Shown here piece after piece: positions 11,362 to 62,904 of a DNA stretch of 64,000 nt. Below the pieces are notes generated by a model, which saw only the letters and a program-made list of their open reading frames with translations, was not told where the DNA came from and did not search any database. The stretch is from contig SVRP01000004.1 of assembly GCA_015064735.1 (NCBI GenBank), forward strand, positions 12,800 to 76,799. Direction: 5' to 3'. Position numbers and translations under genes: made by a program. Source of the stretch: Oscillospiraceae bacterium. GTDB taxonomy: Bacteria > Bacillota > Clostridia > Oscillospirales > CAG-272. The first letter of the stretch is position 1; each line of letters starts with the position of its first letter.

Positions 11362-11362
11362 A

Positions 11363-12541: not shown

Positions 12542-12552
12542 AATAATACTCC

Positions 12553-34732: not shown

Positions 34733-35956
34733 ATGAATAAAAGTAATCAAAAATTATCCATTCGCTGGGTATATATGATTGTGGGTGTTGTTGCCATGCT
34801 GTTTGCGGGTGTTCTATATGCATGGTCTATATTGAAGTCTCCTTTGACTGCTGAGTTTGGCTGGGGTGCCTCTGAGCTTGCTCTGAATTTTACTTTGGCT
34901 ATGACATTCTTTTGTATTGGCGGACTTTTGGGTGCTCAGCTGTCTAAACGGTTGGGACACCGAATAGCGATTGTATCAGCGGGTGTTTTATCTGCGGCAG
35001 GATTTATTCTTACGGCAATTTTGAATAATGTTCCGGTTATAATGCTGTATGTTACATACGGAGTACTTGCGGGTATTGGAATCGGAATAGCTTACAATGT
35101 TGTTATAGCAACAGTTAGCGCATGGTTCCCCGATAAGAAGGGACTGTGCTCAGGATGTCTGATGATGGGATTCGGAGCTTCGGCGCTGGTTTTGGGAAAC
35201 GTGGCTGATGCTATGTTTAAGAGTGCTATGGGATGGAGAGTAACTTATATAGTACTCGGTGTTGCGATTTTTGCAGTCTTGTCTTTGTCGGGAATTATAC
35301 TTAAGAAGCCCTCTCCCGAGGTTGTTTTCCCTCAGGTCGTAGGTCCAAAATCTTCGGGCGAAGAAGTGTTTGAGAAGCAGGACTTCACGTCAAAGCAGAT
35401 GCTTTGCCGTCCGTCGTTTTGGCTTGCATTTATTTGTATATCCTTCTTGGCGGCGGTAGGAAGCTCGGTTATCAGCTTCGCTAAAGATCTTGCGCTTTCG
35501 GTAAATGCTCCCGAAACTCTTGCGGTTTCGTTGGTCGGTGTGCTTTCTGTCTGTAACGGAATCGGACGTATCCTTACGGGTGCTGTGTTCGACATTATAG
35601 GCCGTCGTAAAACCATGCTGTGCGCAAATATTCTTACCATTGGTGCTACGGCGGTTACGTTGATTGCTGTGTCAGCGAATTCCTTAGTGCTTTGCATTGT
35701 CGGTGTGTGCCTTGTTGGAATGTCGTACGGAGCTTGCCCGACTATTACAGCGGCATTTACGTCGTCATTTTTCGGCATGAAGCATTTTTCAAACAATATG
35801 GCACTTATGACATTTACGGTTATGGTTGGCTCATTTGTTGCTACTGCATCAAATAAGGTTCTTGAAGTAACCGGTGGATACACAGCTACGTTTATTATGC
35901 TGTTATCCTTGACGTCGGTAGCATTGGTATTGAATATATTTATTCGAAAGCCGTAA
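34733..35956 (+). CDS. MFS transporter, oxalate/formate antiporter (OFA)-like
   Basis: RWVYMIVGVVAMLFAGVLYAWSILKSPL is the typical OFA N-terminus. 12-TM profile. Confidence 0.85.
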   Translation: MNKSNQKLSIRWVYMIVGVVAMLFAGVLYAWSILKSPLTAEFGWGASELALNFTLAMTFFCIGGLLGAQLSKRLGHRIAIVSAGVLSAAGFILTAILNNVPVIMLYVTYGVLAGIGIGIAYNVVIATVSAWFPDKKGLCSGCLMMGFGASALVLGNVADAMFKSAMGWRVTYIVLGVAIFAVLSLSGIILKKPSPEVVFPQVVGPKSSGEEVFEKQDFTSKQMLCRPSFWLAFICISFLAAVGSSVISFAKDLALSVNAPETLAVSLVGVLSVCNGIGRILTGAVFDIIGRRKTMLCANILTIGATAVTLIAVSANSLVLCIVGVCLVGMSYGACPTITAAFTSSFFGMKHFSNNMALMTFTVMVGSFVATASNKVLEVTGGYTATFIMLLSLTSVALVLNIFIRKP

Positions 35957-36009
35957 GGTATGAATGCTTGTAGGACGGTTCACAGAGAGTGGACGGCAAA
36001 CGCATATAG

Positions 36010-36038
36010 GGCTGACAGAGGAAAAGCTGTCAGCCTTT
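36010..36038 (+). terminator. hairpin (weak terminator) of the GGCTGAC family
   Basis: GGCTGACAG-loop-CTGTCAGCC followed by TTT. The stem sequence is related to the three hairpins at 39236, 43430 and 44005. Confidence 0.5.
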
Positions 36039-36070
36039 AATAAATAAGAATTTGACGGAGGTAGCTGATA

Positions 36071-36400
36071 ATGAAAGAACTTGTTGCTGCAAGCATTCTT
36101 TTCGCAGTATCCATCTTTTTGTTTTTTCTGAGTGTCCGTTCTTTTATGGAAAAGGGCTTTCTTTTTAACAATGCTTACATTTATGCATCCAAGCAAGAAA
36201 GGAAAAAAATGAATAAAAAGCCACATTATCGCCAATCGGCTATTGTTTTTTTATTGCTTGGTTTGAGTTTTTTATTAAATGCTCTCACCGTACTGCTTAA
36301 AGTAAATTGGATTTTTTACATAGCGATAGCGGTTGTCATAGTTGCTCTCATATATGCTATTGTATCAAGCATTACAATTGAGAAAAGTAATAAACAATAA
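36071..36400 (+). CDS. small membrane protein (DUF3784-like pattern)
   Basis: 109 aa with 3-4 TM segments. RBS GGAGGT. AT-rich relative to its neighbours. Confidence 0.65.
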   Translation: MKELVAASILFAVSIFLFFLSVRSFMEKGFLFNNAYIYASKQERKKMNKKPHYRQSAIVFLLLGLSFLLNALTVLLKVNWIFYIAIAVVIVALIYAIVSSITIEKSNKQ

Positions 36401-36403
36401 CAT

Positions 36404-36427
36404 TGTTACAAAATCCAATTTGTCGTG
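36404..36427 (+). repeat. junction motif copy 1 (TGTTACAAAATCCAATTTGTCGTG)
   Basis: Starts 4 nt after the stop codon. Shares AAAWTCCAAYTTGT with 38596, 39203 and 43969. Confidence 0.8.
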
Positions 36428-36460
36428 TAGATAGCGATGGCAGTTATTGTGTAAAAAATA

Positions 36461-36489
36461 TTGACATAGACGGCAAAATATGATATACT
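36461..36489 (+). promoter_or_regulatory. SigA-type promoter of ktrBA
   Basis: TTGACA-17 nt-TGaTATACT. Confidence 0.6.
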
Positions 36490-36509
36490 TATAAAAAATA
36501 ACGATGATA

Positions 36510-36556
36510 AAAGGAACCAGCTGACTGAAGAGGACCTTGGTTCCTTTATGCTTTTT
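36510..36556 (+). promoter_or_regulatory. terminator-like hairpin in the ktrB leader (possible attenuator)
   Basis: AAAGGAACCA (36510-36519) / TGGTTCCTTT (36538-36547) followed by ATGCTTTTT. ATG is at 36570. Confidence 0.4.
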
Positions 36557-36569
36557 AGAGGAAAATCTT

Positions 36570-37931
36570 ATGGTTAGGAAAAAGAAATTCACGCTTTCAA
36601 CCACGCAGATCATATTGCTCAGCTTCCTCGTTACCATTTTCATAGGAAGCGGACTTTTGGCATTGCCAATCAGCTCTGCAAGCAGAGAAGCGGTGCCGTA
36701 TCTCGATGCGCTTTTCACGGCAACCACCTCCACCTGTGTGACGGGACTCGTTACGCTTACCACAGTATCCACATGGAGTGTGTTCGGGCAGATCGTCATT
36801 CTGCTTCTCATACAGATCGGCGGTCTTGGTATCATCACCATTATGTCGGGACTGATGCTTCTTCTCAACAGAAAAATGGGCATCGGCGACCGTTTGCTCA
36901 TTCAAGATGCCTTCAATCTCAATACGATGTCTGGGCTGGCGAAATTCGTTAAAAACGTATTGTTCGGCACGCTGATTATCGAAGGGATAGGAGCTGTCCT
37001 GTATATGCTTGTGTTCGTTCCCGAGTTTGGGGCTGTGGGCATCTGGATATCGGTGTTCAATTCGGTTTCCGCTTTCTGTAATGCCGGCATTGACATTATC
37101 GCGGAAAACAGCCTTTGCAATTACGCAACCAATCCCTTGATCAATATCGTCACCTCTGCGCTCATCATTCTCGGCGGTCTCGGATATATCGTGTGGTGGG
37201 ATGTTCTCCATGTGATTAAAAGCCGTTCACCAAAGAACCGCAAGATATTCAGGCACTTGACCTTGCACTCAAAGATTGCCATTACGGTTACGGCAGGACT
37301 CATTCTTGTCGGTGCAATTCTTATATTTATTTTTGAATATGCTAACCCATTAACCATTGGAGAGATGTCCTTGTTCGATAAAATTCAGGTGTCCTTCTTC
37401 CAATCGGTTACCACGAGAACGGCAGGCTTTGCCTCTGTTCCGCAAGAGAATTTGACAAACGCTTCATCTGCCGTATCTATTATCTTGATGCTGATAGGCG
37501 GTTCACCAGTAGGAACGGCAGGCGGTATGAAAACGGTAACCATTACCATCCTTATCTGCTCGGCATTGGCTACCATTAGAAATAAAAACAGCGCAACCTT
37601 GTTCGGTCGCCGTGTTTCCGAGGTATCGGTGAAAAAGGCTGTTGCGGTAGCGATTACGTTTCTTACAATATGCTCCGCATCAACTATACTATTGATGGCA
37701 ACGAGCAATGCCTCCGCTCTTGATGCAGTCTATGAAACGGTCAGCGCGACTGCAACCGTCGGACTTTCAAGAAATCTGACGGCAACGCTGAACACCTTTG
37801 GAAAGCTAATTATCATCGTAACGATGTATTTCGGCAGAGTCGGTCCCATCTCGCTTGCGGTGGCGCTCGGCAGTAAAAACGAAAGTCAGAACGTCATTTC
37901 CGAGCCGACGGAAGATATCAGTATAGGATAA
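36570..37931 (+). CDS. ktrB: TrkH/KtrB-family potassium uptake membrane subunit
   Basis: Repeated pore-loop-like segments (TSTCVTGL, SAFCNAGIDI, TTRTAGF, TATVGLS). ATG 36570 behind AGAGGA. Confidence 0.88.
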   Translation: MVRKKKFTLSTTQIILLSFLVTIFIGSGLLALPISSASREAVPYLDALFTATTSTCVTGLVTLTTVSTWSVFGQIVILLLIQIGGLGIITIMSGLMLLLNRKMGIGDRLLIQDAFNLNTMSGLAKFVKNVLFGTLIIEGIGAVLYMLVFVPEFGAVGIWISVFNSVSAFCNAGIDIIAENSLCNYATNPLINIVTSALIILGGLGYIVWWDVLHVIKSRSPKNRKIFRHLTLHSKIAITVTAGLILVGAILIFIFEYANPLTIGEMSLFDKIQVSFFQSVTTRTAGFASVPQENLTNASSAVSIILMLIGGSPVGTAGGMKTVTITILICSALATIRNKNSATLFGRRVSEVSVKKAVAVAITFLTICSASTILLMATSNASALDAVYETVSATATVGLSRNLTATLNTFGKLIIIVTMYFGRVGPISLAVALGSKNESQNVISEPTEDISIG

Positions 37932-37942
37932 AGGAGAAGATT

Positions 37943-38593
37943 ATGAAAGCAAAGAAAACATACGCCGTCTTCGGACTTGGAAGATACGGCACAGCTGTGT
38001 CAAAAGAGCTTGTAGAGAACGGTATGGAGGTCATTGCAGTCGATACAGAGGAAAGGATCGTCAACGATGCAGCGGCATATCTGCCCGTGTGCAAATGTGC
38101 TGACGTGACTGATGCGGAGGTCATTTCTCGTCTTGGAATAGGTAATATCGATACCGTTATCGTTTGTATGGCGGGCAATCTTGAAGCGAGCGTGATGGCA
38201 GTCACGCTTTGCAAGGAGGCAGGCGTTAAGACCGTTATCGCAAAATGCGCCAATGAGATGCACCAAAAAATACTGCTTCGCGTGGGTGCGGATCAAGTGG
38301 TTTTTCCCGAAAACGAGTCTGGTATACGCCTTGCTAAGAACCTCTTAAGCTCCGGATTTATTGATATGATCTCTCTGTCAAGGGACGTGTCCATGGTTGA
38401 GATCGATGTGAAGGATGAGTGGTGCGGCAAGACCTTAATTGAATTAAATCTCCGAAAAAAATACGGATTTAATATCGTTGCAATCAAGAAAGGCGAGGAT
38501 GTCTCCGTAAATATCAATCCGGAGCAGGAACTTGATGCAGAAACAACTCTGATCGTTATTGCGAATACTACAAAGCTTGGAAAGTTAAAATAA
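37943..38593 (+). CDS. ktrA: TrkA/KtrA-family potassium uptake regulatory subunit (RCK)
   Basis: YAVFGLGRYG Rossmann (TrkA-N) plus TrkA-C. 216 aa. Confidence 0.88.
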   Translation: MKAKKTYAVFGLGRYGTAVSKELVENGMEVIAVDTEERIVNDAAAYLPVCKCADVTDAEVISRLGIGNIDTVIVCMAGNLEASVMAVTLCKEAGVKTVIAKCANEMHQKILLRVGADQVVFPENESGIRLAKNLLSSGFIDMISLSRDVSMVEIDVKDEWCGKTLIELNLRKKYGFNIVAIKKGEDVSVNINPEQELDAETTLIVIANTTKLGKLK

Positions 38594-38595
38594 GC

Positions 38596-38614
38596 TGTCA
38601 AATTCCAATTTGTA
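38596..38614 (+). repeat. junction motif copy 2 (TGTCAAATTCCAATTTGTA)
   Basis: Starts 3 nt after the ktrA stop codon. Confidence 0.7.
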
Positions 38615-38708
38615 TAATAAAGCTAAATAGAACGATGTGACGGATAGTGTCGTGACTTTTTGCGGTGGCGATGTTATAATGAACTCACAAAAGCAAGGAG
38701 GTTGCATT

Positions 38709-39200
38709 ATGACTTTTGGTGAAAAATTAAAAAAGCTGCGAAACGACAATCAGCTTACTCAAGACGAGTTGGCTGAAAAGATCTATGTCACAAGAACAGC
38801 TATCTCAAAGTGGGAAACTGACAAAGGATATCCAAGTATAGATAGCTTAAAACAACTCTCTAATCTTTTTCATATCAGTATAGACGAGTTAATATCCGAT
38901 ACCGATATCGAGAATAAGCGACTGCTTGATGAAGCGCAAAGTCGCAAATTTTATTGGTTCGCTATTGCTTGTCTTGCAGTAGCAACGGTCAGCGCAGTAA
39001 TCAACTATTTCACAAAGATACCATATCTCAACATTATCAGTTTTTCGGGAGTGATTGGATACATCGTGTTAGGTTTGCTTTCCAAGCCAAAATACAAGAG
39101 GATAGCTGCGAGGAAAATGGTGCTGCCGTATGTGCTTTCTCGGTTAGTGATACTTGCAGTTATCATTGCGGTTATAGCTTACGCATTTATTGAAACATAA
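38709..39200 (+). CDS. XRE-family HTH regulator with C-terminal membrane segments
   Basis: MTFGEKLKKLRNDNQLTQDELAEKIYVTRTAISKWETDKGYPSIDSLKQLSNLF is a Cro/C1 HTH. Two or three C-terminal TM helices. ATG 38709 behind AGGAGG. Confidence 0.85.
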   Translation: MTFGEKLKKLRNDNQLTQDELAEKIYVTRTAISKWETDKGYPSIDSLKQLSNLFHISIDELISDTDIENKRLLDEAQSRKFYWFAIACLAVATVSAVINYFTKIPYLNIISFSGVIGYIVLGLLSKPKYKRIAARKMVLPYVLSRLVILAVIIAVIAYAFIET

Positions 39201-39202
39201 AC

Positions 39203-39296
39203 AAATTCCAACTTGTCGTGATGATGATAAAGAGCGAGGGCTGACGGAAAACAACCGTCAGCCCTCAAAATTTGAGTCGCAGAAAGCAAAGAAAAG
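39203..39296 (+). repeat. inter-gene linker repeat, copy A (junction motif + GAGGGCTGAC hairpin + AAAATTTGnnTCGC...CAAAGAAAAG tail)
   Basis: Junction motif at 39203-39220. 12-bp hairpin 39236-39247/39255-39266. Tail to 39296. Aligns with copy C over about 95 nt. Confidence 0.85.
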
Positions 39297-39324
39297 CAAA
39301 TTCGAAGAAATTCACAAAATATAC

Positions 39325-39353
39325 TTGTTTTTCTTTCAAAAAAGGTGTATAAT
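39325..39353 (+). promoter_or_regulatory. candidate promoter of the thi operon
   Basis: TTGTTT-17 nt-TATAAT preceded by TG. Confidence 0.45.
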
Positions 39354-39365
39354 AATCGTACAATT

Positions 39366-39472
39366 AAACAGCGGGGAGCTTGATGCGCCTATGAGCGCGG
39401 ACAGGCTGAGAGGAAGGTAAGACCTTCGACCCATTAACCTGATTTGGATAATGCCAACGTAGGGATGCCTGA
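39366..39472 (+). promoter_or_regulatory. TPP (THI-box) riboswitch
   Basis: GGGGAGC...CTGAGA...ACCC..AACCTGAT.TGGATAATGCCAACG.AGGGA conserved THI-element blocks. Confidence 0.9.
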
Positions 39473-39490
39473 ACAATAGTGTATTCATTT

Positions 39491-39524
39491 GGAAGCTACC
39501 CAAAAAGGTAGCTTCCATTTTTTA
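39491..39524 (+). terminator. riboswitch-controlled intrinsic terminator
   Basis: GGAAGCTACC-CAAAAA-GGTAGCTTCC followed by ATTTTTTA. Confidence 0.8.
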
Positions 39525-39592
39525 TTGGTTCGTAGGTTTCCGCTGAATGATTGAATATTTTTATTCCGATCAAATCGGAGAAAGAGGCAAAA

Positions 39593-40414
39593 ATGCTTGG
39601 AAACTGTCTTGAAAACGTAAGAAAGACCACGCCACTCGTGCATAACATCACGAATTATGTTACCGTTAACGACGTGGCAAATGTGCTTCTCGCTTGTGGC
39701 GGTAGCCCTATTATGTCGGACGAGCCCGACGATGTGGCAGACATCACTTCCATCTGCGGAGGACTCAACATCAATATCGGTACGCTCAACAAGCGCAGCA
39801 TTGAAGCAATGTTTGTAGCCGGAGCGAAGTCTAACGAGCTTGGACATCCCGTTCTGCTTGATCCCGTTGGTGCAGGCGCAAGCGCGCTTCGCACTAACAC
39901 CGCAGTCGAAATTATGGAGAAAATCAAACTCGATGTTATCCGCGGCAACATCTCGGAGATCAAAACACTCGCGCTTGGAAGCGGCACAACCAAGGGCGTG
40001 GATGCGGATGCGGCAGATACCGTGACCGAGGATAACCTCGATCAGATGGTCGCCTTTGCCAAGAGCTTTGCCGCCAAGAGCGGTGCCGTTGTTGCCATCA
40101 CAGGCGCTATTGACCTTGTGGCAGATGCCGATAAGTGCTACGTGATCCGCAACGGTCGCCCCGAAATGAGCCGTATCACAGGCACGGGCTGTCAGCTTTC
40201 GGGAATCGCTACTGCATACGTTGTAGCCAACCCCGATAACAAGACCGACGCTGTTGCCGCCGCTGTGTGCGTCATGGGTCTTGCAGGTGAGATCGGCGTT
40301 GCTAATATGGCAGAGGGCGAAGGAAATTCCTCGCTCCGTAACCGCATTATTGATGCCATCTACAATATGGATGCCGAAACGCTGAATCAGGGAGCAAAGT
40401 ATGAAGTACGATAA
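39593..40414 (+). CDS. thiM: hydroxyethylthiazole kinase
   Basis: PLVHNITNYVTVNDVANVLLACGGSPIM hallmark. ATG 39593 behind GGAGAAAGAGG. Confidence 0.92.
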   Translation: MLGNCLENVRKTTPLVHNITNYVTVNDVANVLLACGGSPIMSDEPDDVADITSICGGLNINIGTLNKRSIEAMFVAGAKSNELGHPVLLDPVGAGASALRTNTAVEIMEKIKLDVIRGNISEIKTLALGSGTTKGVDADAADTVTEDNLDQMVAFAKSFAAKSGAVVAITGAIDLVADADKCYVIRNGRPEMSRITGTGCQLSGIATAYVVANPDNKTDAVAAAVCVMGLAGEIGVANMAEGEGNSSLRNRIIDAIYNMDAETLNQGAKYEVR

Positions 40415-41042
40415 AAAAGACCTACTTTTGTATGCGGTAACCGACCGTTCCTGGCTTGGTGAGCAGACCCTCTACGAGCAGGTGGAGGAGGCTCTCAAGG
40501 GCGGCGCGACCTTCGTTCAGCTTCGTGAAAAGGAGCTTGACGATGACACCTTCCTTGCCGAAGCTATTGAGATACAAGAGCTTTGCAAAAGATACAATGT
40601 GCCTTTTGTAATCAACGACAACGTGGAGATCGCAAGGAAAATGAACGCAGACGGTATTCATGTTGGACAGAGCGATATGGAGGCAGGTGACGTCCGCGCC
40701 CTTCTCGGTGAGGATAAGATACTCGGCGTATCGGCACAGACCGTAGAGCAAGCCATCCTTGCTGAGCAGCGCGGTGCGGACTATCTCGGCGTTGGCGCGG
40801 TCTTTCACACAGGCTCAAAAGCTGATGCCGATGACGTAAGCCATGAAACGTTGAAAGCGATTTGCCAAGCCGTAAGTATTCCTGTTGTCGCTATCGGCGG
40901 GATCGGTAAGCATAACGTGCTAAAGCTTAGCGGAAGCGGCATCTGCGGAATTGCCGTGATCAGCGCGATCTTCGCAGCCGAGGACATCACGAGCGCGACT
41001 GCAGAGCTGAAGGCTCTCACCGAACAGGCGGTAGCGAAATGA
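40401..41042 (+). CDS. thiE: thiamine-phosphate synthase
   Basis: LYAVTDR..., VQLREK, INDNVEIA, and DGIHVGQSD blocks. Confidence 0.93.
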   Translation: MKYDKKDLLLYAVTDRSWLGEQTLYEQVEEALKGGATFVQLREKELDDDTFLAEAIEIQELCKRYNVPFVINDNVEIARKMNADGIHVGQSDMEAGDVRALLGEDKILGVSAQTVEQAILAEQRGADYLGVGAVFHTGSKADADDVSHETLKAICQAVSIPVVAIGGIGKHNVLKLSGSGICGIAVISAIFAAEDITSATAELKALTEQAVAK

Positions 41043-41674
41043 TCAAGGGCGCGATATTTGACCTTGACGGAACGCTCCTTGATTCGATGTCCATATGGGA
41101 TACCATCGGAGAGGACTATCTTCGATCCCTTGGTATCGAGCCGAGAGAGAATTTAGCCGAAACATTCAAGACCTTCACCTTGGAAGAATCCGCCGAATAT
41201 TATCGAACACATTACGGCGTAACCTTGTCGGTTGCGGAAATCGTGGACGGTGTAAACCGAATGATCGAGGACTTTTATCGAAATACAGTATCTCTTAAAA
41301 AAGGGGTTTCCGAGTTCCTTGAACGGCTATCAAAGGACGGAGTGAAGATGTGTGTTGCTACGGTAACTGACAAGTATCTCGTAGAAGCCGTTTTGACTCG
41401 CCTGAAGGTCAGACAATACTTTGGCGAGATCATAACTACCGCCGAGGTGGGTTGTGGCAAGAACAAGCCGACGATTTATCGCACGGCTCTTGCTTATCTT
41501 GGAACGGAAAAGCACGAAACCCTCGTATTTGAGGACGTGCTCCACGCTCTGATGACAGCAAAGAATGACGGCTTTCCCGTTGCGGCAGTCTATGACAAGC
41601 ACGAGTTAAGGCAGACGGAAATGAAAGCAAACGGTGATTATTATATTACCAATTACGAAACAGTAAAAATATAA
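41039..41674 (+). CDS. HAD-IA family phosphatase embedded in the thi operon
   Basis: MIKGAIFDLDGTLLDS motif I, KPTIY, and FEDVLHAL motif. Confidence 0.85.
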   Translation: MIKGAIFDLDGTLLDSMSIWDTIGEDYLRSLGIEPRENLAETFKTFTLEESAEYYRTHYGVTLSVAEIVDGVNRMIEDFYRNTVSLKKGVSEFLERLSKDGVKMCVATVTDKYLVEAVLTRLKVRQYFGEIITTAEVGCGKNKPTIYRTALAYLGTEKHETLVFEDVLHALMTAKNDGFPVAAVYDKHELRQTEMKANGDYYITNYETVKI

Positions 41675-41742
41675 AACACAGCGGCAGACCGGGGGCACCA
41701 CTCTCTGTCGCTCAAGAAAAAATAATGTTTAGGAGAAAAAAT

Positions 41743-42546
41743 ATGAAAACAGCATTATCAATCGCGGGAAGCGACTCCTGCGGAGGCGCCGGTATTCAAG
41801 CAGATATTAAGACAATGACAATGAACGGTGTTTATGCCATGAGCGCAATAACAGCACTCACCGCACAGAACACGACCGGCGTAAGATCAATTATGGAGGC
41901 AACTCCCGACTTTTTGAAGGATCAGATCGATGCGGTTTTTGAGGATATCCGTCCCGATGCCGTAAAAATTGGAATGGTATCTTCTGCAAAGCTTATTAAG
42001 GTGATTGCCGAAAGACTTGCCTATTACAAAGCGAAAAACATTGTAGTCGATCCCGTAATGGTGGCAACAAGCGGTTCTGAATTGATGAAAACCGATGCGG
42101 TATCGGTGCTGACAAGAGAGCTTCTTCCTCTCGCTACTCTTGTTACGCCCAATATCCCCGAAGCAGAGGTCTTGTCAGGGCAGTCCGTTCACACGAAAGA
42201 AGATATGGAACGTGTGGCGAAGATGATAGGCGATACCTACGGATGCGCTGTGCTTCTAAAGGGCGGTCATAGCATCAATGATGCAAACGATCTTCTGTAT
42301 GCAAACGGCAACTACAAATGGTTCAGCGGTAAGCGTATCAACAATCCCAACACACACGGCACGGGCTGTACGCTTTCGTCTGCAATAGCATCAAACCTCG
42401 CAAAGGGATATGACCTTGAAACCTCTATCAGGAGAGCAAAGGATTATATCTCGGGCGCACTTGCGGCGATGCTCGACCTCGGGCAGGGCTCAGGACCTAT
42501 GAATCATGCTTTTGATCTGAACGGAAAATATGCGGAGGAAAACTGA
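41743..42546 (+). CDS. thiD: hydroxymethylpyrimidine/phosphomethylpyrimidine kinase
   Basis: ALSIAGSDSCGGAGIQADIKT and GTGCTLSSAIA motifs. ATG 41743 behind AGGAG. Confidence 0.93.
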   Translation: MKTALSIAGSDSCGGAGIQADIKTMTMNGVYAMSAITALTAQNTTGVRSIMEATPDFLKDQIDAVFEDIRPDAVKIGMVSSAKLIKVIAERLAYYKAKNIVVDPVMVATSGSELMKTDAVSVLTRELLPLATLVTPNIPEAEVLSGQSVHTKEDMERVAKMIGDTYGCAVLLKGGHSINDANDLLYANGNYKWFSGKRINNPNTHGTGCTLSSAIASNLAKGYDLETSIRRAKDYISGALAAMLDLGQGSGPMNHAFDLNGKYAEEN

Positions 42547-42547
42547 A

Positions 42548-43210
42548 ATGAAATTGACAACTCAAATGTCGGCAGCCGTAGAAGATATCTGGGCTGAATA
42601 TTACACGCACCCCTTTGTCAAGGGAATTGAAAACGGTACACTTGATCAAAAAAAATTCAGATACTATATCAAGCAGGACTATTTATATCTGATTGAGTAC
42701 ACCAAGGTGTTCGGCATCGGTATTGCCAAGGCGAAAAGCACCGAGGTAACTAAGCTGTTCGCATCCTACATACAGCTTTTGACTGACGGTGAAATGGACA
42801 TCCATAGAGGTTATATGGGCAGGTTCGGTGTTACCGAAGCGGAGCTTGCAGACACACCTCGTGCGCTTGATAATCTTTCCTATACCTCGTATATGCTCCG
42901 TGTAGCCTATGAGGAAGGAGAAGCAGAGGTATTGGCGGCGATCCTTTCCTGTGCTTACAGCTATGAGATGATTGCCCGTAATATCGTCAAGAACAATCCT
43001 AATTCCGTCAATCACGAGTTTTACGGTGATTGGATCAAGGGCTATGCAAGCGATGAGTACAGCAAAGAAAACAGCGTGCTTTTTGAAATGCTTGAAAAGC
43101 TGACTGCACATTACACCGACGAGCAGAAGCAGCACATCGTGGATATCTACGTTGCTTGCTCACGCTACGAGCTTGCTTTTTGGAATCTGTCTTGGAATAT
43201 GAGCAAATAA
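42548..43210 (+). CDS. tenA: thiaminase II / aminopyrimidine aminohydrolase
   Basis: HPFVKGIENGTLDQKKFRYYIKQDYLYL is the TenA/PqqC-like signature. Confidence 0.9.
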   Translation: MKLTTQMSAAVEDIWAEYYTHPFVKGIENGTLDQKKFRYYIKQDYLYLIEYTKVFGIGIAKAKSTEVTKLFASYIQLLTDGEMDIHRGYMGRFGVTEAELADTPRALDNLSYTSYMLRVAYEEGEAEVLAAILSCAYSYEMIARNIVKNNPNSVNHEFYGDWIKGYASDEYSKENSVLFEMLEKLTAHYTDEQKQHIVDIYVACSRYELAFWNLSWNMSK

Positions 43211-43213
43211 GAT

Positions 43214-43309
43214 ATGAAAAGGTGTGTAATTGTAGGCTGTTCTGATATAACCGCTTACGATAGGATCAACGGCATCATAACAGGCGAAGATTATGTTATC
43301 TTCTGCGAT
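43214..43309 (+). pseudogene. N-terminal fragment (about 32 codons) of a thiamine pyrophosphokinase (thiN/TPK)-like gene
   Basis: MKRCVIVGCSDITAYDRINGIITGEDYVIFCD resembles TPK N-termini (M..C.IV..G.......I...D.II.AD). After codon 32 the frame enters repeat-derived sequence and stops at 43438. No TPK-like continuation in any frame. Confidence 0.4.
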
Positions 43310-43316
43310 AGATTAT

Positions 43317-43354
43317 CAAAACGCAATATCTGCATCGCTGTAGTCAAAGAAAAG
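43317..43354 (+). repeat. partial, degenerate copy of the linker-repeat tail
   Basis: CAAAACGCAATATCTGCATCGCTGTAGTCAAAGAAAAGG versus CAAAATTTGCATCGCTGAAAGCAAAGAAAAGC (copy B). Confidence 0.65.
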
Positions 43355-43429
43355 GCTCGCCGAGCTGATAAAAACGATGAAAGCCGAAATCGCGGAGATG
43401 AAGAAACAAGCAAAGAATGCATAAGGAAA

Positions 43430-43486
43430 GAGGGCTGACCAAAACGGTCAGCCCTCAAAATTTGCATCGCTGAAAGCAAAGAAAAG
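43430..43486 (+). repeat. linker repeat, copy B (hairpin + tail only)
   Basis: 11-bp hairpin 43430-43440/43446-43456, then AAAATTTGCATCGCTGAAAGCAAAGAAAAG. Confidence 0.85.
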
Positions 43487-43495
43487 CCAAATCGG

Positions 43496-43524
43496 TTGAA
43501 AAGTTCATAGAAATATGATATAAT
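43496..43524 (+). promoter_or_regulatory. SigA-type promoter of the GNAT gene
   Basis: TTGAAA-17 nt-TGaTATAAT. Confidence 0.6.
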
Positions 43525-43560
43525 AAACTCATCGAATAAGAATTTGACGAGGTAATCAAT

Positions 43561-43965
43561 ATGAACATTGAATATAAAGTCATTCATGATTTTGAGTGTG
43601 AGGATTTGGAAAGGTTGTTTCTTTCGGTTGAATGGTCATCAGGACATTTTCCCGACAAGCTTGCAATTGCAATGAAAAATTTTAACACAGTATATTCTGC
43701 TTGGGATGGAACTAAGCTTGTTGGAATGATATGTGTTATGGATGATGGAATAATGAATGCCTATGTTCATTATCTTCTTGTTGACCCTGATTATCACGGA
43801 AAAACAATCGGCAGAACACTTGTAAATATGGTAAAAGAAAAGTATAAGGATTATATGCGAATTGTGGTTGTTGCTTATGATGATGAGCTGCATTTTTACA
43901 AAGCGTGTGGTTTTGAAAAGAGTAAAAATGCTTCTCCTATGTTTATAACTTCCTTGTGGACATAA
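43561..43965 (+). CDS. GNAT family N-acetyltransferase
   Basis: 134 aa. LLVDPDYHGKTIGRTLV (Q/RxxGxG/A-like acetyl-CoA motif). C-terminal YKACGFE. Confidence 0.88.
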   Translation: MNIEYKVIHDFECEDLERLFLSVEWSSGHFPDKLAIAMKNFNTVYSAWDGTKLVGMICVMDDGIMNAYVHYLLVDPDYHGKTIGRTLVNMVKEKYKDYMRIVVVAYDDELHFYKACGFEKSKNASPMFITSLWT

Positions 43966-43968
43966 TAC

Positions 43969-44066
43969 TGTTAAAATCCAATTTGTCGGTATGATGATAA
44001 GAGCGAGGGCTGACAGAAATCAATCTGTCAGCCCTCAAAATTTGCATCGCAGTAATCAAAGAAAAG
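43969..44066 (+). repeat. linker repeat, copy C (junction motif + hairpin + tail)
   Basis: Junction motif TGTTAAAATCCAATTTGTCGG, GATGATAAGAGC, 12-bp hairpin 44005-44016/44025-44036, and tail AAAATTTGCATCGCAGTAATCAAAGAAAAG. Confidence 0.85.
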
Positions 44067-44191
44067 AGATTTTGAAAAGTACTAAGAAAATAAATAAAAA
44101 AAACGCTCGAAACCGGTGTCTTGTGCCGAGAGAAAGCGTTTTGCTGAAAACTGTGGTCTTTTGGCAAAAGAGCAAGTTGGGGATAATAAAC

Positions 44192-44231
44192 AAAAAATCA
44201 GTCCTAATCTTACGAAAAGGACTGATTTTTT
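44192..44231. terminator. bidirectional intrinsic terminator (ends the tRNA-Pro transcript on the minus strand)
   Basis: AAAAAATCAGTCCT...AGGACTGATTTTTT. Confidence 0.8.
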
Positions 44232-44251
44232 GGTGCATAAAGCACAAATTT

Positions 44252-44327
44252 TGGTCGGAGTGACAGGATTCGAACCTGCGGCATCGACGTCCCAAACGTC
44301 GCGCGCTACCAGCTGCGCCACACCCCG
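44252..44327 (-). tRNA. tRNA-Pro (anticodon UGG), CCA encoded
   Basis: Minus strand reads CGGGGTGTGGCGCAGCTGGTAGCGCGCGACGTTTGGGACGTCGATGCCGCAGGTTCGAATCCTGTCACTCCGACCA. The 7-bp acceptor, D, anticodon (loop TTTGGGA) and T arms (GGTTCGAATCC) all fold. 76 nt. Confidence 0.95.
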
Positions 44328-44345
44328 ATGTGTGAAAAATATTCG

Positions 44346-44375
44346 ATTTTTAGGTCATTTTCCGTAAGTGGTCAA
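44346..44375 (-). promoter_or_regulatory. candidate promoter of tRNA-Pro
   Basis: Minus strand reads TTGACC-17 nt-TAAAAA(T), about 19 nt upstream of the mature 5' end. The -35 is part of a tandem GTTTGACCAC x2. Confidence 0.45.
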
Positions 44376-44423
44376 ACATGTGGTCAAACCGCTTTTACAG
44401 AGGATTTTGCGAGAGAGCAGAGT

Positions 44424-44469
44424 GCCGAAAAAGTCAGTGTTTACAAGGGTTTTCGGCGTTTTTTGTTTT
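44424..44469 (+). terminator. plus-strand terminator-like hairpin with no obvious upstream gene
   Basis: GCCGAAAA...TTTTCGGC followed by GTTTTTTGTTTT. Confidence 0.5.
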
Positions 44470-44495
44470 CTCGAAGAGTGTAGTCGGTGTCCTGC

Positions 44496-44533
44496 TCCCA
44501 AACGTCGCGCGCTACCAACTGCGCCACACCCCG
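44496..44533 (-). pseudogene. fragment of a second tRNA-Pro (positions 1-38 only)
   Basis: 37/38 identity to 44290-44327 (one D-loop difference). Homology stops exactly at the 3' edge of the anticodon loop. Confidence 0.85.
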
Positions 44534-44612
44534 AAAAATATAAATATTTTACCACGCCTTGATATTATATCAAAACCTTTCACTTTTGTCAACTGATATT
44601 TTACTTTTATTC

Positions 44613-44654: not shown

Positions 44655-46508
44655 TTATTTCTGACCAAGATTAAATTCAACGACAACGGGTGCGTGGTCG
44701 GAGAAGCTTGCAGCTTGATCTGTAAGAACTGTCTCGTAAACGTCAACAGAAACAGTATTTTTGCTGTCAAGCACGAATATATGATCAATAGATGCCTTGT
44801 AGTTTGAACCTAAGGAGTAGGGCCCGGGTATAAACAATTCAAGCTCGGGGACATAGGTTGGAGCACCGTGGCAGGAAGCGCCGTCGCTGCCTCTTACAGT
44901 GGTTGCTTCCTCATGACAATCCTTGAATTGAGCATCAAAGAGCTTTTTGCATTCTTCCGAGGATACAGTTGCATTGTAATCGCAACCGAGGAATACGGGA
45001 ATATCGGGATACAGCTCAATAACCTTATTTATTTCGCCGAGAGCGGTATCAATGTGTATCTTTCTGTTAATAGTTCCTACTTCGTTGCTTACGTTGTAGT
45101 TGGAAGAGAAGTGTGTATTGGATACAATGAACCTCTCCCCGGTCTTAAGGGACTCAAAAACAACGGTTGTTACTCCTTTTGAGTCATCAGCTGTGGTAAG
45201 TGTTCCGCTTTTATATGCAGAATCGTTCGCATACCACTGATAGTGTGTGTAGGTGGAATAGATTACTTTTACAGAGGATTCCTTGTAAAATACAGGCATT
45301 ACGTTGCCTTTTGCGCGATTGTAATCGGGAATCTCAACTTCCTTGTATCCGTTTTTTTCAAGCAGGGTCTTTATAGCACCCGATTCTCTCATTACAGGCC
45401 AATATTCATTTATGCCTATAACGTCAGCATCGAAGGCAAGATACATAGCAGCCGCATTTTCATCGCGGTTATCAATGAAATGCTCCTTGTAATCGCAAAG
45501 TCCCCAGCAGTTGTTGAACATGATTCTGTATTCGCTGTTGCTCGTGGGCACGGATTTACATTTAGCTGCATGAACATAATCGGCGCCCAAAATATCAGCC
45601 TCGATTTTTTTTACGAAAAGCTCCTTGGAGAGGAACTTGAACGCTTCCTCATAGCCGTAAAGATCATATGCGGAAATGCATAGATTACCTTCTTTTACGG
45701 AAATCTCATAATTTCCCTTGTCTATAGAGGGGGTAAGACCTCTGTTGGTTTGCCCTATAATAATTTCGTATCCGGAGGCAGGAGTTGAATCATCGATTAT
45801 TTCAAGATCAAGCCCAACCTTGTAATAAAGATGGTGCTTGAGGGAGGTAGCAACGTAGTATTCACCCTTGATAGAATCCTTTGGGAAAACTATCTTGTAG
45901 TTTTCGAGAGAATTTCCGGCACAGGTCTTTATTGGACAACCGGCTGTGCCTTCGAAGTAAAGGTCGTTTTTACTGTTATAAGCAAAATCGTCGTCAGGGT
46001 TAGCACTGAGAATTGACCTTGAAATGAAATAGCCGTATCCGGAAGTTATCGCGACCGAGTTCATACCCGTAATAACAATCTTGTTTCCGTAAAGCCCGCA
46101 GATGTAGTCGGAAGGACCTAAAAGCTGTTCGTGAGCAGAAGCGGACTCGGGTCTGTTGGTCTTGCCGATAAGAATTTCAACAGCACTTTCGACATACTCT
46201 ACGGCAGAGTCCTCTTTGCATTCAACGTAAAGGTCGAACTTCTTTAATATATCCATCTGAAGCTTGTTAGCGACTTGTTCAAGAGAATTAGCACCTTCGG
46301 GATAGATAATTACAGCATTAACATTTCCGTTTTCGCTGAGCTTAAGCTCAATACCGTTTTCATCTCCCGAAGCATCGGAGTCTGAGTGGGAAGAGCTCGG
46401 ACCGTTTGCAGAGGGTGCGTCGGTCGTCTTATCTGCCGTGTCTTTGCCGCACGAAACAATTGAAAAGACAATTATTAGTGAAAGAATTGAGGACAGTATT
46501 TTTTTCAT
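44655..46508 (-). CDS. secreted lipoprotein: two N-terminal alpha/beta modules + C-terminal endonuclease/exonuclease/phosphatase (EEP) domain
   Basis: Lipobox MKKILSSILSLIIVFSIVSC. C-terminal ...SFSDHAPVVVEF EEP hallmark. ATG 46508 preferred over 46532. Confidence 0.85.
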   Translation of the reverse strand: MKKILSSILSLIIVFSIVSCGKDTADKTTDAPSANGPSSSHSDSDASGDENGIELKLSENGNVNAVIIYPEGANSLEQVANKLQMDILKKFDLYVECKEDSAVEYVESAVEILIGKTNRPESASAHEQLLGPSDYICGLYGNKIVITGMNSVAITSGYGYFISRSILSANPDDDFAYNSKNDLYFEGTAGCPIKTCAGNSLENYKIVFPKDSIKGEYYVATSLKHHLYYKVGLDLEIIDDSTPASGYEIIIGQTNRGLTPSIDKGNYEISVKEGNLCISAYDLYGYEEAFKFLSKELFVKKIEADILGADYVHAAKCKSVPTSNSEYRIMFNNCWGLCDYKEHFIDNRDENAAAMYLAFDADVIGINEYWPVMRESGAIKTLLEKNGYKEVEIPDYNRAKGNVMPVFYKESSVKVIYSTYTHYQWYANDSAYKSGTLTTADDSKGVTTVVFESLKTGERFIVSNTHFSSNYNVSNEVGTINRKIHIDTALGEINKVIELYPDIPVFLGCDYNATVSSEECKKLFDAQFKDCHEEATTVRGSDGASCHGAPTYVPELELFIPGPYSLGSNYKASIDHIFVLDSKNTVSVDVYETVLTDQAASFSDHAPVVVEFNLGQK

Positions 46509-46797
46509 TTTGTTTTTCCTTTCATTAATCATGTGTTGATTTTGTTATCGGGAAGGTCAGGAAAATATATGATGTATAAACGCTCATATATTAAGAACGA
46601 TTTCACTTTAAATTATACATTTTTTTGTGGATTTTGTCACGCATTTTTTTGCTATATATTCGCCATTTTTTTACCTTTGACAATTAAATACAGACAAAAT
46701 TTTATAAGATGATGTATTCGACCTTGCTAAGAAATATTTCCGGAATGAATTTTTCAAAAAAATTCTTGCAAAAACGGTGGGTAATTTCAAAAAAATA

Positions 46798-61371: not shown

Positions 61372-61505
61372 CAGAAAATATATCAAGATTGCACAAAATA
61401 ATTTAAAAAATCAAAAAAACTATTGCAAAAAGCGAACAAATCATGTATAATTAAAATATTATACACTGAGTGTTCGTTTTTTCTTTTGAAAGGAGGAAAG
61501 TAAAA

Positions 61506-62192
61506 ATGACTTTGTCATTTTGGAATGTAGTGCTGCGCTTGTTTGTGGCTGCAATTTGCGGAGGACTTATCGGAATAGATAGAGGAAGAAAGCGCAGAGC
61601 GGCAGGCTTTAGAACTCATATGCTTGTGTGTATGGGAGCGGCGCTGACTATTGTGCTTGGTATTTATCTCTCAAATCAAATATACGGTGTATGGGGCTTG
61701 GGAGATTTTTATAAAACGGATATATCGAGATTTGGAGCGCAGGTCATTAACGGCATAGGATTTATCGGTGCAGGTACTATTATAGTAACGGGACGTCAGC
61801 AGGTAAAGGGAATGACGACGGCTGCAGGTCTTTGGGCATCTGCCTGTATGGGGCTTGCTATTGGAGCAGGCTTTTGGGCAGCTGCTGTCATAGGCTGTTC
61901 TTGTATTATAATTACCATAGTTATATTTTCCAAGCTTGAATCATTTATCCTTTCACATTCGAGAAACGTGAATATATTTGTTGAATTTGAGAATGCTGAT
62001 GATCTTTCTACCATAATAGAGAGGATCAAGGAGCAGGATGTCCGTATTTTCGATATTGAGCTAACCAAGGCAAAGGGAGAATCCTATCCAAATGCGATCT
62101 TTTCCTTGCAACTTCCCAAAAGTAGGTCTCACGCATATGTAATGACGGCAATTGCGGAAATTGATACCGTCAGAACCATAGAAGAAGTATAA
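61506..62192 (+). CDS. MgtC/SapB family protein
   Basis: GGLIGIDRGRKRRAAGFRTH and GIGFIGAGTII motifs. ATG 61506 behind AGGAGG. Confidence 0.9.
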   Translation: MTLSFWNVVLRLFVAAICGGLIGIDRGRKRRAAGFRTHMLVCMGAALTIVLGIYLSNQIYGVWGLGDFYKTDISRFGAQVINGIGFIGAGTIIVTGRQQVKGMTTAAGLWASACMGLAIGAGFWAAAVIGCSCIIITIVIFSKLESFILSHSRNVNIFVEFENADDLSTIIERIKEQDVRIFDIELTKAKGESYPNAIFSLQLPKSRSHAYVMTAIAEIDTVRTIEEV

Positions 62193-62205
62193 GGAGGGCA
62201 GAGAA

Positions 62206-62904
62206 ATGTTAGAATTTTTTGATATTTTTCGCGGTAATTACATAGATTGGCTTACAGTCGCTGTCCGACTTGTTACGGCAATAATCTGCGGAGGAGTTAT
62301 AGGACTCGAGCGCGAAAGAAAGCGCCGTCCCGCAGGCTTCCGAACACACATTCTTATTTGTCTCGGTGCTGCAATGACAACCCTTACAAGCCAGTATCTC
62401 GTTTTGAACCTTCACATGTTTACCGATATGGCTCGTCTTGGCGCACAGGTTATTGCGGGTATCGGATTTATAGGCGCGGGTACAATTATCATAACCAAGA
62501 GACGTCAGGTTAAGGGACTTACTACGGCAGCAGGACTTTGGGCTGCCGCGATCGTCGGTCTTTGCTGCGGTGCGGGCTTCTTTGAGGCAGCTATCGTTTC
62601 TACGGCAATAATTCTTTTAGCGGAAATTGTTTTTGCAAAGCTTGAATATTTTATTGTTTCAAATGCAAGAGTTTGTAATCTCTACATAGAGTATTCGGAG
62701 ACGAGCAAGCTTGGAGTTATAGTTGATACCATAAAAAAGACGGGCGCATACATAGTGGATATGGAAATAACCAAAAAGGGCTCGGATGAGGGAAAAAACC
62801 CTTGCGCTGTGTTTTCGATACGTACACCCAGAAAAATCAAACATCAGGCTATGATGACAATGCTTGCTAAGCTTGACGGTGTAATTTCTGTTGAAGAGCT
62901 TTAA
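62206..62904 (+). CDS. MgtC/SapB family protein (tandem paralog)
   Basis: GGVIGLERERKRRPAGFRTH and GIGFIGAGTII. Confidence 0.9.
   Translation: MLEFFDIFRGNYIDWLTVAVRLVTAIICGGVIGLERERKRRPAGFRTHILICLGAAMTTLTSQYLVLNLHMFTDMARLGAQVIAGIGFIGAGTIIITKRRQVKGLTTAAGLWAAAIVGLCCGAGFFEAAIVSTAIILLAEIVFAKLEYFIVSNARVCNLYIEYSETSKLGVIVDTIKKTGAYIVDMEITKKGSDEGKNPCAVFSIRTPRKIKHQAMMTMLAKLDGVISVEEL

Follow-up and report, generated by a model that had tools for sequence, protein, structure and literature searches.

The stretch of DNA analyzed here (64 kb of contig SVRP01000004.1 from an Oscillospiraceae bacterium, assembly GCA_015064735.1, positions 12,800 to 76,799 of the forward strand; hereafter the window) carries, at approximately 35957-44534, a block of gene units lying between a major facilitator superfamily (MFS) gene and a tRNA-Pro gene. 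A preliminary reading based on the letters alone (the sequence-only reading) had recognized five such units in this block together with a thiamine pyrophosphate (TPP) riboswitch and the tRNA gene, all of which were recovered when the window was searched against Pfam and Rfam. We consider it likely, with a probability of roughly 0.78, that the block is a decayed composite genomic island derived from the cargo ends of a single Oscillospirales family of integrative and mobilizable elements (IMEs). This family carries two tandem tyrosine recombinases, IntA and IntB, and fragments of its intB gene are still found in the block. The features discussed below are the following, with related loci in other genomes and on metagenome contigs given L numbers:

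34733-35956: MFS gene, left flank of the block (Pfam)
35972-36007, plus strand: intB remnant 1, codons for ...EGRFTPRVNGKRI..., 92% identical to L002 713-750
36008-36040, plus strand: hairpin relic of the type seen after the intB stop codon in intact elements (repeat family D17; the same hairpin follows intB in L007)
36071-36400, plus strand: DUF3784 cargo gene (PF12650; 36040-36400 with its leader)
36410-36425, plus strand: junction palindrome copy 1 (AAAATCCAATTTGTCG)
36448-38607, plus strand: ktrB-ktrA unit, with its own promoter at 36461-36489
36570-37931, plus strand: TrkH/KtrB gene (Pfam)
37943-38593, plus strand: TrkA/KtrA gene (Pfam)
38595-39201, plus strand: XRE-TM unit, opening with palindrome copy 2 (38600-38613) and with its own promoter at 38652-38680
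38709-39200, plus strand: gene of the HTH_3 (XRE-TM) regulator, with a C-terminal membrane part (Pfam)
39203-39345, plus strand: linker copy with palindrome 3 (39203-39218), spacer, hairpin (39235-39267), post-hairpin stretch to 39304 and the thi promoter
39227-43311, plus strand: thi unit, in which the TPP riboswitch is followed by thiM, thiE, a HAD gene, thiD, tenA and a truncated thiN
39362-39482, plus strand: TPP riboswitch (Rfam)
39593-40414, plus strand: thiM
40401-41042, plus strand: thiE
41039-41674, plus strand: HAD hydrolase gene
41743-42546, plus strand: thiD
42548-43210, plus strand: tenA
from 43214, plus strand: truncated thiN, for thiamine pyrophosphokinase (TPK)
43318-43354, plus strand: post-hairpin-like relic without hairpin, between truncated thiN and intB remnant 2 (repeat family D2)
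43347-43424, plus strand: intB remnant 2, the last ~25 codons (...EKLAELIKTMKAEIAEMKKQAKNA) and stop codon, 99.3% identical to L002 from nucleotide 787
43422-43560, plus strand: linker copy after the intB stop codon, with hairpin (43430-43456), post-hairpin stretch, promoter (43496-43524) and ribosome-binding site (RBS) leader
43561-43965, plus strand: GNAT acetyltransferase cargo gene (Pfam)
43973-44110, plus strand: linker copy with palindrome 4 (43973-43988), hairpin (44005-44036), post-hairpin stretch and a decayed promoter part
44252-44327, minus strand: intact tRNA-Pro(UGG) (ARAGORN and Rfam), read as an element-borne copy
44290-44296: crossover core TCCCAAA (plus strand) in the anticodon loop of this tRNA-Pro
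44328-44495, plus strand: element arm 'X' (attR arm), with repeated GTGGTCAAA and TTTACAAGG..TTTCGG sites
44496-44534, minus strand: displaced 5′ half of the former resident tRNA-Pro, opening at the core TCCCAAA (repeat D15)
44564-44592, minus strand: consensus promoter TTGACA-17-TATAAT, TG-extended (promoter scan 12/12), upstream of the displaced 5′ half

The block had been described as integrase-less, with no recombinase, transposase or phage gene anywhere in the window. This description stands for intact genes: a Pfam screen of the open reading frames (ORFs) of at least 100 aa in the window returned none, and tblastn of the window with IntA, IntB, the MobP3 relaxase and a serine recombinase found nothing intact. 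It does not stand for gene fragments, as two 3′ remnants of an integrase gene are present in the block. Remnant 1 begins 16 nt past the stop codon of the MFS gene, its match in L002 lies within an intact-ended Phage_integrase gene, and the hairpin relic adjoins it directly at its 3′ side. Remnant 2 belongs to a segment (43348-44242) that is 99.3% identical over 895 nt to L002, where the GNAT-bearing match has in front of it 286 codons from the 3′ end of a gene for a tyrosine recombinase (PF00589, E=7.7e-26). Since this match starts inside the integrase gene, 43347-43424 represents the 3′ end of intB, which was confirmed by tblastn with IntB residues 456-477 (87%). Thus, 36 nt and 78 nt of intB survive in the window, and the deletion end points differ between the two remnants. 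Immediately upstream of remnant 2, a 74-codon ORF (43214-43438) is made up of the first ~32 codons of thiamine pyrophosphokinase, the post-hairpin-like relic and the intB remnant, with a GAAAAG microhomology at the join of the latter two; in the related locus L120, an intact TPK (207 aa) ends the same thi operon. The MobP3 relaxase gave no tblastn match in the window, and its module was seen only in intact relatives. The window, which lacks this mobilization module, therefore holds an IME remnant and not an IME.

The right-hand end of the block provides the second line of evidence. The arm at 44328-44495 is 88-92% identical to the end arm of the elements in L012, L014 and L016, and the 39 nt at 44496-44534 are 97% identical to 44290-44328, so that the tRNA gene is adjoined by a direct repeat of its own 5′ half, as looked for at an island boundary. 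The intact tRNA-Pro of the window holds the same position as the internal tRNA of L012/L014/L016 and of L110. The promoter at 44564-44592 was probably the original promoter of the resident tRNA-Pro; at its present location it would transcribe the tRNA fragment and the arm toward the element tRNA. Furthermore, contig L027 (ENA ERZ27248436), which comes from a different sample, represents the same chromosome: 3.6 kb of it match the window at 100% identity as far as 44290, beyond which it continues with another arm, such that its positions 3380-3789 correspond to an extra arm at the anticodon-loop core of the window's tRNA-Pro. This genome carries one further element in the same tRNA-Pro, and the site is therefore polymorphic in nature.

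Both features have counterparts in the intact relatives. More than 6500 IntB homologues (~478 aa) were found in metagenome-assembled genomes of Clostridia, and species-representative Oscillospirales genomes contain at least 579 IntB relatives, in hosts that include Ruminococcus intestinalis, Flavonifractor plautii, Angelakisella, Intestinimonas, Oscillibacter and strain CCNA10. A search of the plasmid collection gave no close IntB relative (best match 41% identical). The modules of the element are ordered as HTH_17 (excisionase-like), Cys_rich_VLP, MobL/MobP3 relaxase (272 bits for MobP3 against a cut-off of 150), IntA (387 aa) and, last, IntB (~477 aa). Behind intB, intact elements have a hairpin, then a variable cargo slot measuring 0.1-4.8 kb, an oppositely oriented but complete tRNA-Pro gene and, finally, an arm of ~170 nt. 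Among the 55 IntB-related loci examined for tRNA genes, 26 carried a minus-strand tRNA-Pro (UGG, CGG or GGG) 113-4757 nt past intB; more distant integrases adjoin tRNA-Ala, tRNA-Val or tRNA-Thr. As a separate observation on the protein itself, IntB has a domain of ~50 aa at both its N and its C terminus (44% identical over 50 aa, E=1e-8; both copies share ..AKT.EECEEKL.AL), for which Pfam has no name. It looks like a domain of the arm-DNA-binding type, and its presence at both ends is unusual for an integrase.

An identical IntB occurs in three chromosomal contexts (L012, L014 and L016), so that at least this element must have moved recently. The three contexts are identical from intB through the hairpin, the minus-strand tRNA-Pro and the ~170-nt arm, which has the repeated GTGGTCAAA and TTTACAAGG..TTTCGG sites here as well; the element identity stops at ...CCTGC|TCCCAAA, where the anticodon loop is reached, and each context goes on with a tRNA-Pro 5′ half of its own. 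Both ends are known for one element only, the complete ~7.15-kb element L110, whose left end is a tRNA-Pro 3′ half plus TCCCAAA, which carries its own tRNA-Pro inside, and whose right end consists of arm, TCCCAAA and the matching 5′ half. Beyond L110, a right end at TCCCAAA with an adjoining tRNA-Pro 5′ half was seen in ~30 loci, in which a full tRNA and arm are followed by 1-3 extra 5′ halves spaced ~200 nt apart. In addition, we found five orphan tRNA 3′ halves, each followed by a conserved far-end arm. The sequence common to both partners is the 7-nt core TCCCAAA, the element-side flanks are unrelated to the tRNA, and the tRNA is rebuilt at neither junction. Judging from these junctions, the crossover of the family lies in the anticodon loop of tRNA-Pro and does not follow the classical 3′-end mode of tRNA integration. 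The right end of the window (tRNA, arm, core, 5′ half) matches this geometry exactly. Of the earlier view of the block as an integrase-less island beside a tRNA gene, the island is supported, whereas the absence of integrase sequence is not.

The sequence-only reading had also pointed to a junction motif 3-10 nt past four stop codons, and this proved correct. The motif (AAWTCCAAYTTGT, allowing at most one mismatch) has four matches in the 64 kb, all of them perfect, on the plus strand and within the block (4/4), at positions 36411, 38601, 39204 and 43974, i.e. 10, 7, 3 and 8 nt past the stop codons of DUF3784, ktrA, XRE and GNAT, respectively; shuffled sequences gave a mean of 0.74 matches. 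Comparison with the relatives showed that this imperfect palindrome makes up the opening 16 nt of a longer linker (~165 nt) between co-directional cargo genes. In the linker, the stop codon of one gene is followed by 0-10 nt, AAATTCCAATTTGTCG, a spacer of ~18 nt and the hairpin GGGCTGAC..GTCAGCCC, and then by TCAAAATTTGCATCGCAGAAAGCAAAGAAAAG, the promoter TTGAAAAGTTCATAGAAATATGATATAAT and a leader (..GATAAATAAGAATTTGACGGAGG) up to the ATG of the next gene. Every linker has one promoter of the form TTGAAA-17-TATAAT plus an RBS leader. Since the linker supplies hairpin, promoter and RBS leader between genes, each cargo unit looks self-contained. DUF3784, which sits directly past intB remnant 1, has the standard leader as well (ATAAATAAGAATTTGACGGAGG, the leader of the linker consensus).

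A profile built on the linker gave 65 matches in 42 loci, all in the same orientation as intB or the cargo gene that orients the locus. Its only three matches in the window (39206-39345, 43422-43553 and 43977-44110) are in the block and correspond to the three listed linker copies (nhmmer E=1.9e-29, 6.4e-36 and 3.7e-28). The first and third of these have fold z-scores of -5.1 and -5.6, and the second scored 11/12 with an extended -10 in the promoter scan. In general, the linker hairpins are very stable (z about -5); for the palindrome region, RNA folding gave nothing significant (z about 0 to +0.9). Palindrome copies with at most one mismatch are strongly tied to gene ends: for 15 of 16 distinct copies, the distance to the end of a long open frame on the same strand is -2 to +9 nt, where 4.9% would be expected (P about 3e-19), with the caveat that these loci were gathered through their relatedness to the window and are not independent samples, although their cargo genes differ. 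In three relatives the stop codon overlaps the palindrome, which is conserved at 12-14 of 14 positions, and the spacer behind it is variable. The far-end (attL) arms of the elements showed no relation to the sequences behind the palindrome.

A linker variant in L148 (6050-7287) keeps palindrome, promoter and RBS leader and, in place of the GGGCTGAC hairpin, has a canonical terminator that is unrelated to it (GCCCATCGAGGA..TCCTTGGTGGGC, then a T-run). Because a canonical terminator occupies the same place in this variant, the linker hairpin is probably a terminator as well. L148 came from an exact-motif scan of IMG/VR, in which four of the 33 matches (L148, L151, L162 and L149) were related to the arrays and the other 29 had no linker or IntA/IntB match. 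In L151 (5247 and 6053), L162 (4794) and L149, all IMG/VR contigs from the same Joint Genome Institute sample series, the palindrome follows cargo stop codons upstream of two tandem large serine recombinase genes, and the motif is therefore not tied to IntA/IntB elements. Two other interpretations of the linker were discarded. The post-hairpin stretch is not the end of a minus-strand gene (...FFAFSDANFEG*), as its copies differ non-synonymously and the frame is not kept. Nor does the linker look like an IS200/IS605-type element, a palindrome-associated transposable element or a miniature inverted-repeat transposable element, as it has a single hairpin, no TnpA/TnpB nearby and always spans from stop to start codon.

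The cargo units themselves recur elsewhere in different surroundings. The slot content of the relatives varies: L012 has no cargo, L007 a beta-CASP nuclease, L011 a methyltransferase and L002 the GNAT, and the largest cargo slot seen measures 4.8 kb. An identical GNAT protein was found on other metagenome contigs, behind the intact-ended intB in L002 and with other flanks in L003 and L004. The thi unit (39227-43311) is 92.2% identical at the nucleotide level over 4090 nt to L120, in which the intact operon is located, together with a hairpin and a second hairpin, between a truncated intB (last 124 codons) and a tRNA-Pro with three att scars; a large serine recombinase is encoded upstream. For the XRE unit (38595-39201), counterparts at 91% nucleotide identity occur in the arrays of L125, L128, L130 and L132, two of which (L128 and L132) end at tRNA-Pro. 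The unit follows four different genes, namely KtrA in the window and genes for a hexapeptide transferase, a methyltransferase and a TfoX_N-like protein; the shared sequence starts exactly at CAAATTCCAATTTGT, with other predecessors in L125, L130 and L132, and stops 1 nt past the stop codon. The identity breakpoints of the thi, XRE and GNAT units fall at linkers or at the motif. The relatives of ktrBA (92-94% aa and 85-89% nt identity) reside in ordinary chromosomal settings of other Oscillospiraceae without linkers. The native 3′ flank of ktrA is GTCAAATTCCAGATC or GTCAAAATTTAATTT, and the identity with the window therefore ends inside the motif. On this sequence evidence, the ktrBA unit looks like a chromosomal operon captured through short homology.

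Two further observations were made on these loci. In L130 (1-6792) and L132 (1-3834), small accessory genes are lined up co-directionally in arrays of 6-12 (GNATs, a methyltransferase, NUDIX, Rce1-like, DUF1349, YbjN-like and HTH regulators), some of them only 0-20 nt apart, with an integron-like or rAID-like look (rAID, recombinase-associated acquired interbacterial defense). In L124 (1-1941) and L120 (303-677), a large serine recombinase gene (Resolvase, Recombinase, Zn_ribbon_recom and DUF4368 domains) lies directly upstream of the 124-codon intB remnant, beside the intact thi operon; this may be a second element type that inserted into, or replaced most of, the tyrosine-recombinase element.

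With respect to composition, the sharp GC differences reported earlier were borne out for some of the genes. Compared with 50 ORFs outside the block (0.443 +/- 0.029; range 0.368-0.490), thiM (0.519) and thiE (0.533) exceed all background genes, and GNAT (0.343) and DUF3784 (0.321) fall under all of them; the XRE gene has a GC content of 0.384. In contrast, ktrB, ktrA, HAD, thiD and tenA are unremarkable. A 1-kb GC profile runs from 0.377 to 0.540 in the block compared to 0.353-0.540 in the whole window and hence covers nearly the full span. The compositional mosaic is real, but it rests on about 5 of the 11 block genes and is visible at the extremes only.

A further signal of transfer came from protein clusters at 90% identity, which comprise 144 members for KtrB, 1753 for KtrA, 94 for XRE, 130 for ThiE, 241 for HAD and 194 for GNAT, versus 1, 2, 2, 19 (GapA), 1, 16, 7, 2, 1, 3, 4 and 9 for twelve window proteins from outside the block. 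The host lineage is rare in databases; the block genes are nonetheless common to many contigs at 90% identity or more. A relative carrying block genes (L121) and a contig of the window strain (L019) even come from the same sample (3300032167). As for the flanks, the genes downstream of MFS relatives (73-85% aa identity) are unrelated ones, and no tRNA gene is found there. The 625-aa neighbor on the other side (44655-46532, minus strand) lacks any Pfam domain, and a search of 5.8 billion proteins gave only 7 homologues, the best of which is 69% identical and located on contigs of ~2.4-2.5 kb; its more distant homologues carry PF03372 (endonuclease/exonuclease/phosphatase). Elsewhere in the window, Rfam reported no RNA families other than tRNA and the TPP riboswitch. 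A 180-nt direct repeat (10747-10926 and 11921-12100; 73% identity) overlaps a GFO_IDH_MocA gene (10195-11439, minus strand) and an unannotated ORF (11666-12556, plus strand), and two tandem MgtC-family genes (240 and 232 aa) are present at 61470-62904.

Taken together, the intB remnants, the arm with its tRNA-half scar, the further insertion in L027, the separate occurrences of the cargo units and the contrast in cluster sizes support the earlier suggestion of a recombination hotspot or decayed island beside the tRNA gene. Several observations weigh against a composite island of this origin. No left att site (tRNA 3′ half) was found elsewhere in the window, and there is a single arm-plus-5′-half scar for what would be at least two elements. 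Around 15 contigs of the same strain are invariant inside the block; those designated L017-L030 are 99.7-100% identical and, L027 apart, uninformative on variability. A search for ktrBA in a cargo slot of other genomes returned chromosomal settings only, and no close relatives of DUF3784 were found. The cluster sizes, moreover, depend on how well the donor lineages have been sampled. Lastly, no relative with an empty site was found, the homologues of the flanking genes being too few or too distant, and the outer limits of the island as well as the acquired status of each unit therefore rest on indirect evidence.

Some of these points would also fit if a single element had brought in the whole block as one long cargo array, with the second remnant and the extra hairpins produced by internal rearrangement and no serial integration at this site. 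Such a single acquisition would account for the sole scar beside the tRNA and for the invariance of the block within the strain, and other arrays (L120 and L132) already hold several linkers and truncated intB pieces. We nevertheless regard it as rather unlikely, given that the two intB remnants are separate and have different deletion end points, that donors and identities differ from unit to unit (GNAT 99%, thi 92%, XRE 91% and ktrBA 85-89%), that L027 shows further integration at this very tRNA, and that the 8.3 kb from remnant 1 to the tRNA exceed the largest slot seen. Far less probable still is that the block is vertically inherited housekeeping DNA, the motif being a terminator or operator shared across the genome. 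In its favor, potassium uptake through ktrBA and thiamine salvage are widespread as housekeeping functions, every contig of the strain shows the block in synteny, and half of the block genes have an ordinary GC content. This explanation is, though, already contradicted by the integrase remnants, the split-tRNA scar and the element arm, by the confinement of motif and linker to the block (both are missing from the other 55 kb of the window), by the cluster sizes of 94-1753 versus 1-19, and by the fact that the thi, XRE and GNAT units turn up next to intB and tRNA-Pro in unrelated surroundings, at 91-99% nucleotide identity.

For the entry of genes into the array, site-specific recombination and homologous exchange via the shared linkers, the two mechanisms named at the outset, are still the two candidates. 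Were the palindrome a recombination site for the excision and insertion of single genes, the system would be an integron-like or rAID-like platform. Its placement speaks for this, as it abuts or overlaps the stop codons of many different co-directional genes and is conserved next to a variable spacer. Breakpoints fall at the palindrome or at an ORF edge: CAAATTCC is the exact start of the XRE unit whichever of its four predecessors it follows, and the native ktrA flank joins inside the palindrome, between CAAATTCCA and ATTTGT. The 5′ leader AAGAATTTGACGGAGG also resembles the palindrome (12/18), whose stem-spacer-stem layout is like that of the anticodon stem-loop serving as attB. Yet the palindrome also occurs in serine-recombinase contigs without IntA/IntB (L151, L162 and L149) and with an unrelated terminator (L148), and since the recombinases differ, no single one co-varies with it. 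Other findings speak against a dedicated site, too: between the window and L004 the GNAT gene retains neither flank, the slot of cargo-free elements has no such site, other array indels lack the motif, and IntA and IntB score far below the integron-integrase cut-off, while linkers of ~165 nt at 79-92% identity offer ample homology for RecA. We find a site-specific cassette system doubtful and favor a route in which genes would enter through homologous exchange between linkers, with short-homology joins bringing in new genes.

That tRNA-linked islands arise by tandem integration and decay to remnants that keep their cargo is well described, and the composite island proposed here has counterparts in several systems. 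In Firmicutes, accretion arrays of IMEs and integrative and conjugative elements and their remnants occur at tRNA genes, for example the composite elements of Faecalibacterium (PMC12084326; reviewed in PMC5704250), whose remnants beside tRNA genes include vitamin modules (PMC12084326). These arrays share with our family the site-specific integrase, the relaxase-only mobilizable element, the integration into tRNA genes, the successive integrations at an att site beside a resident element and the retention of adaptive cargo in remnants (PMC12084326, PMC5704250). They differ in that here the crossover is in the anticodon loop, a 5′-half scar is left, a whole tRNA is carried and the 3′ end is not restored, and in that two tandem tyrosine recombinases accompany a single linker-organized cargo slot. 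Closer in its integration logic is the tRNA-dependent lysogeny of temperate phages of Mycobacterium (Guerrero-Bustamante and Hatfull 2024, PMC10865867), in which a tyrosine integrase likewise acts on a short common core in a tRNA gene and the host tRNA is not rebuilt. Unlike these phages, the present element is a mobilizable, non-phage element of Clostridia. An intact tRNA-Pro is located inside the element in L012/L014/L016, where it is identical in the three contexts, and in L110, as tRNA-dependent integration would predict. Similarly, the tycheposons of Prochlorococcus tRNA-proximal islands (bioRxiv 10.1101/2020.12.28.424599) are cargo elements specific to particular tRNA genes, in which newcomers push older ones into the island, leaving fragmented integrases and partial tRNAs, and whose cargo includes nutrient-acquisition operons. 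They have a different integrase lineage and different hosts, carry no relaxase, and no linker-organized arrays were reported for them.

The organization of the cargo, in turn, recalls the rAID-1 gene clusters of Bacteroidales, with their XerD-like recombinase and immunity-gene cargo (Ross et al., bioRxiv 10.1101/471110). L132, L011 and L002 show a comparable architecture of a 5′ tyrosine recombinase, at least two co-directional downstream genes and repetitive intergenic sequence, and the window has a decayed version of it. The low GC content typical of rAID-1 is found only in GNAT, DUF3784 and XRE. Phylum and recombinase are different, and here the cargo is mixed, includes whole self-regulated operons and forms an array inside an IME beside its own tRNA (compare 10.1101/471110). 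By analogy, then, the likeness is one of design and not of membership. Integrons and clusters of attC sites lacking integron-integrases (CALINs) share the co-directional arrays, rich in GNATs and small unknown proteins, and a conserved site right at each stop codon. We rejected an integron nevertheless: against the TIGR02249 model (IntI, cut-off 265 bits), IntB scored 61 bits and IntA 41.5 bits, so there is no IntI-type integrase. Nor did the junction sequences, judged directly and not with a covariance model, contain an attC site (imperfect inverted repeats of 57-141 nt with a GTTRRRY core); instead, there is the 16-nt palindrome AAATTCCAATTTGTCG. Moreover, integron cassettes are mostly promoterless and depend on a common Pc promoter, whereas each linker has its own promoter and RBS. 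In full-text searches of the literature we found analogues only and no description of the element family or the linker, which is weak evidence of novelty.

Based on these comparisons, we propose that an element of the family would split the resident tRNA-Pro without rebuilding it, such that the tRNA-Pro brought by the element replaces the resident one. A later element could then enter the element-borne tRNA and push the earlier one inward, which would let a row of arm-plus-5′-half scars grow. At the tRNA-Pro of the window, at least two elements of the family would have integrated. IntA, the relaxase and most of intB would later have been lost through internal deletions, which would also have shortened thiN and eliminated the left att site; a GAAAAG microhomology is found at one deletion junction and GCATA at another. 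The survivors would be cargo and linkers (DUF3784, ktrBA, the XRE-TM regulator, the thi operon and GNAT), each with a donor history of its own. As only cargo with linkers would have outlasted this decay, the units look self-contained and no mobility gene is left.

The island reading thus turns a puzzling 'integrase-less' mosaic into the wreck of a definable element family, for which the intB 3′ end, the arm, the split tRNA-Pro and the linker model could serve as markers of similar islands in uncultured Oscillospirales. Two features of the family, its tRNA replacement and its linker-organized cargo, deserve attention. The former would extend the 'bring your own tRNA' strategy from mycobacteriophages to mobilizable elements of gut and rumen Clostridia, in a community in which operons for potassium uptake and thiamine salvage appear to circulate as cargo. 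The latter, a promoter-bearing linker with a conserved palindrome at every gene junction, is a candidate for a novel mechanism by which accessory genes are put together and expressed. More speculatively, and with odds that we put well below even, linker and 16-nt palindrome might constitute an undescribed gene-cassette platform of gut and rumen Oscillospirales, coupled to tRNA-Pro-replacing elements. If so, single ORFs and operons would be swapped precisely at ORF boundaries between elements with different recombinase types, and each cassette would gain its own promoter and RBS, so that Firmicutes would have an equivalent of integrons and rAID arrays that works with another recombination site and another logic.

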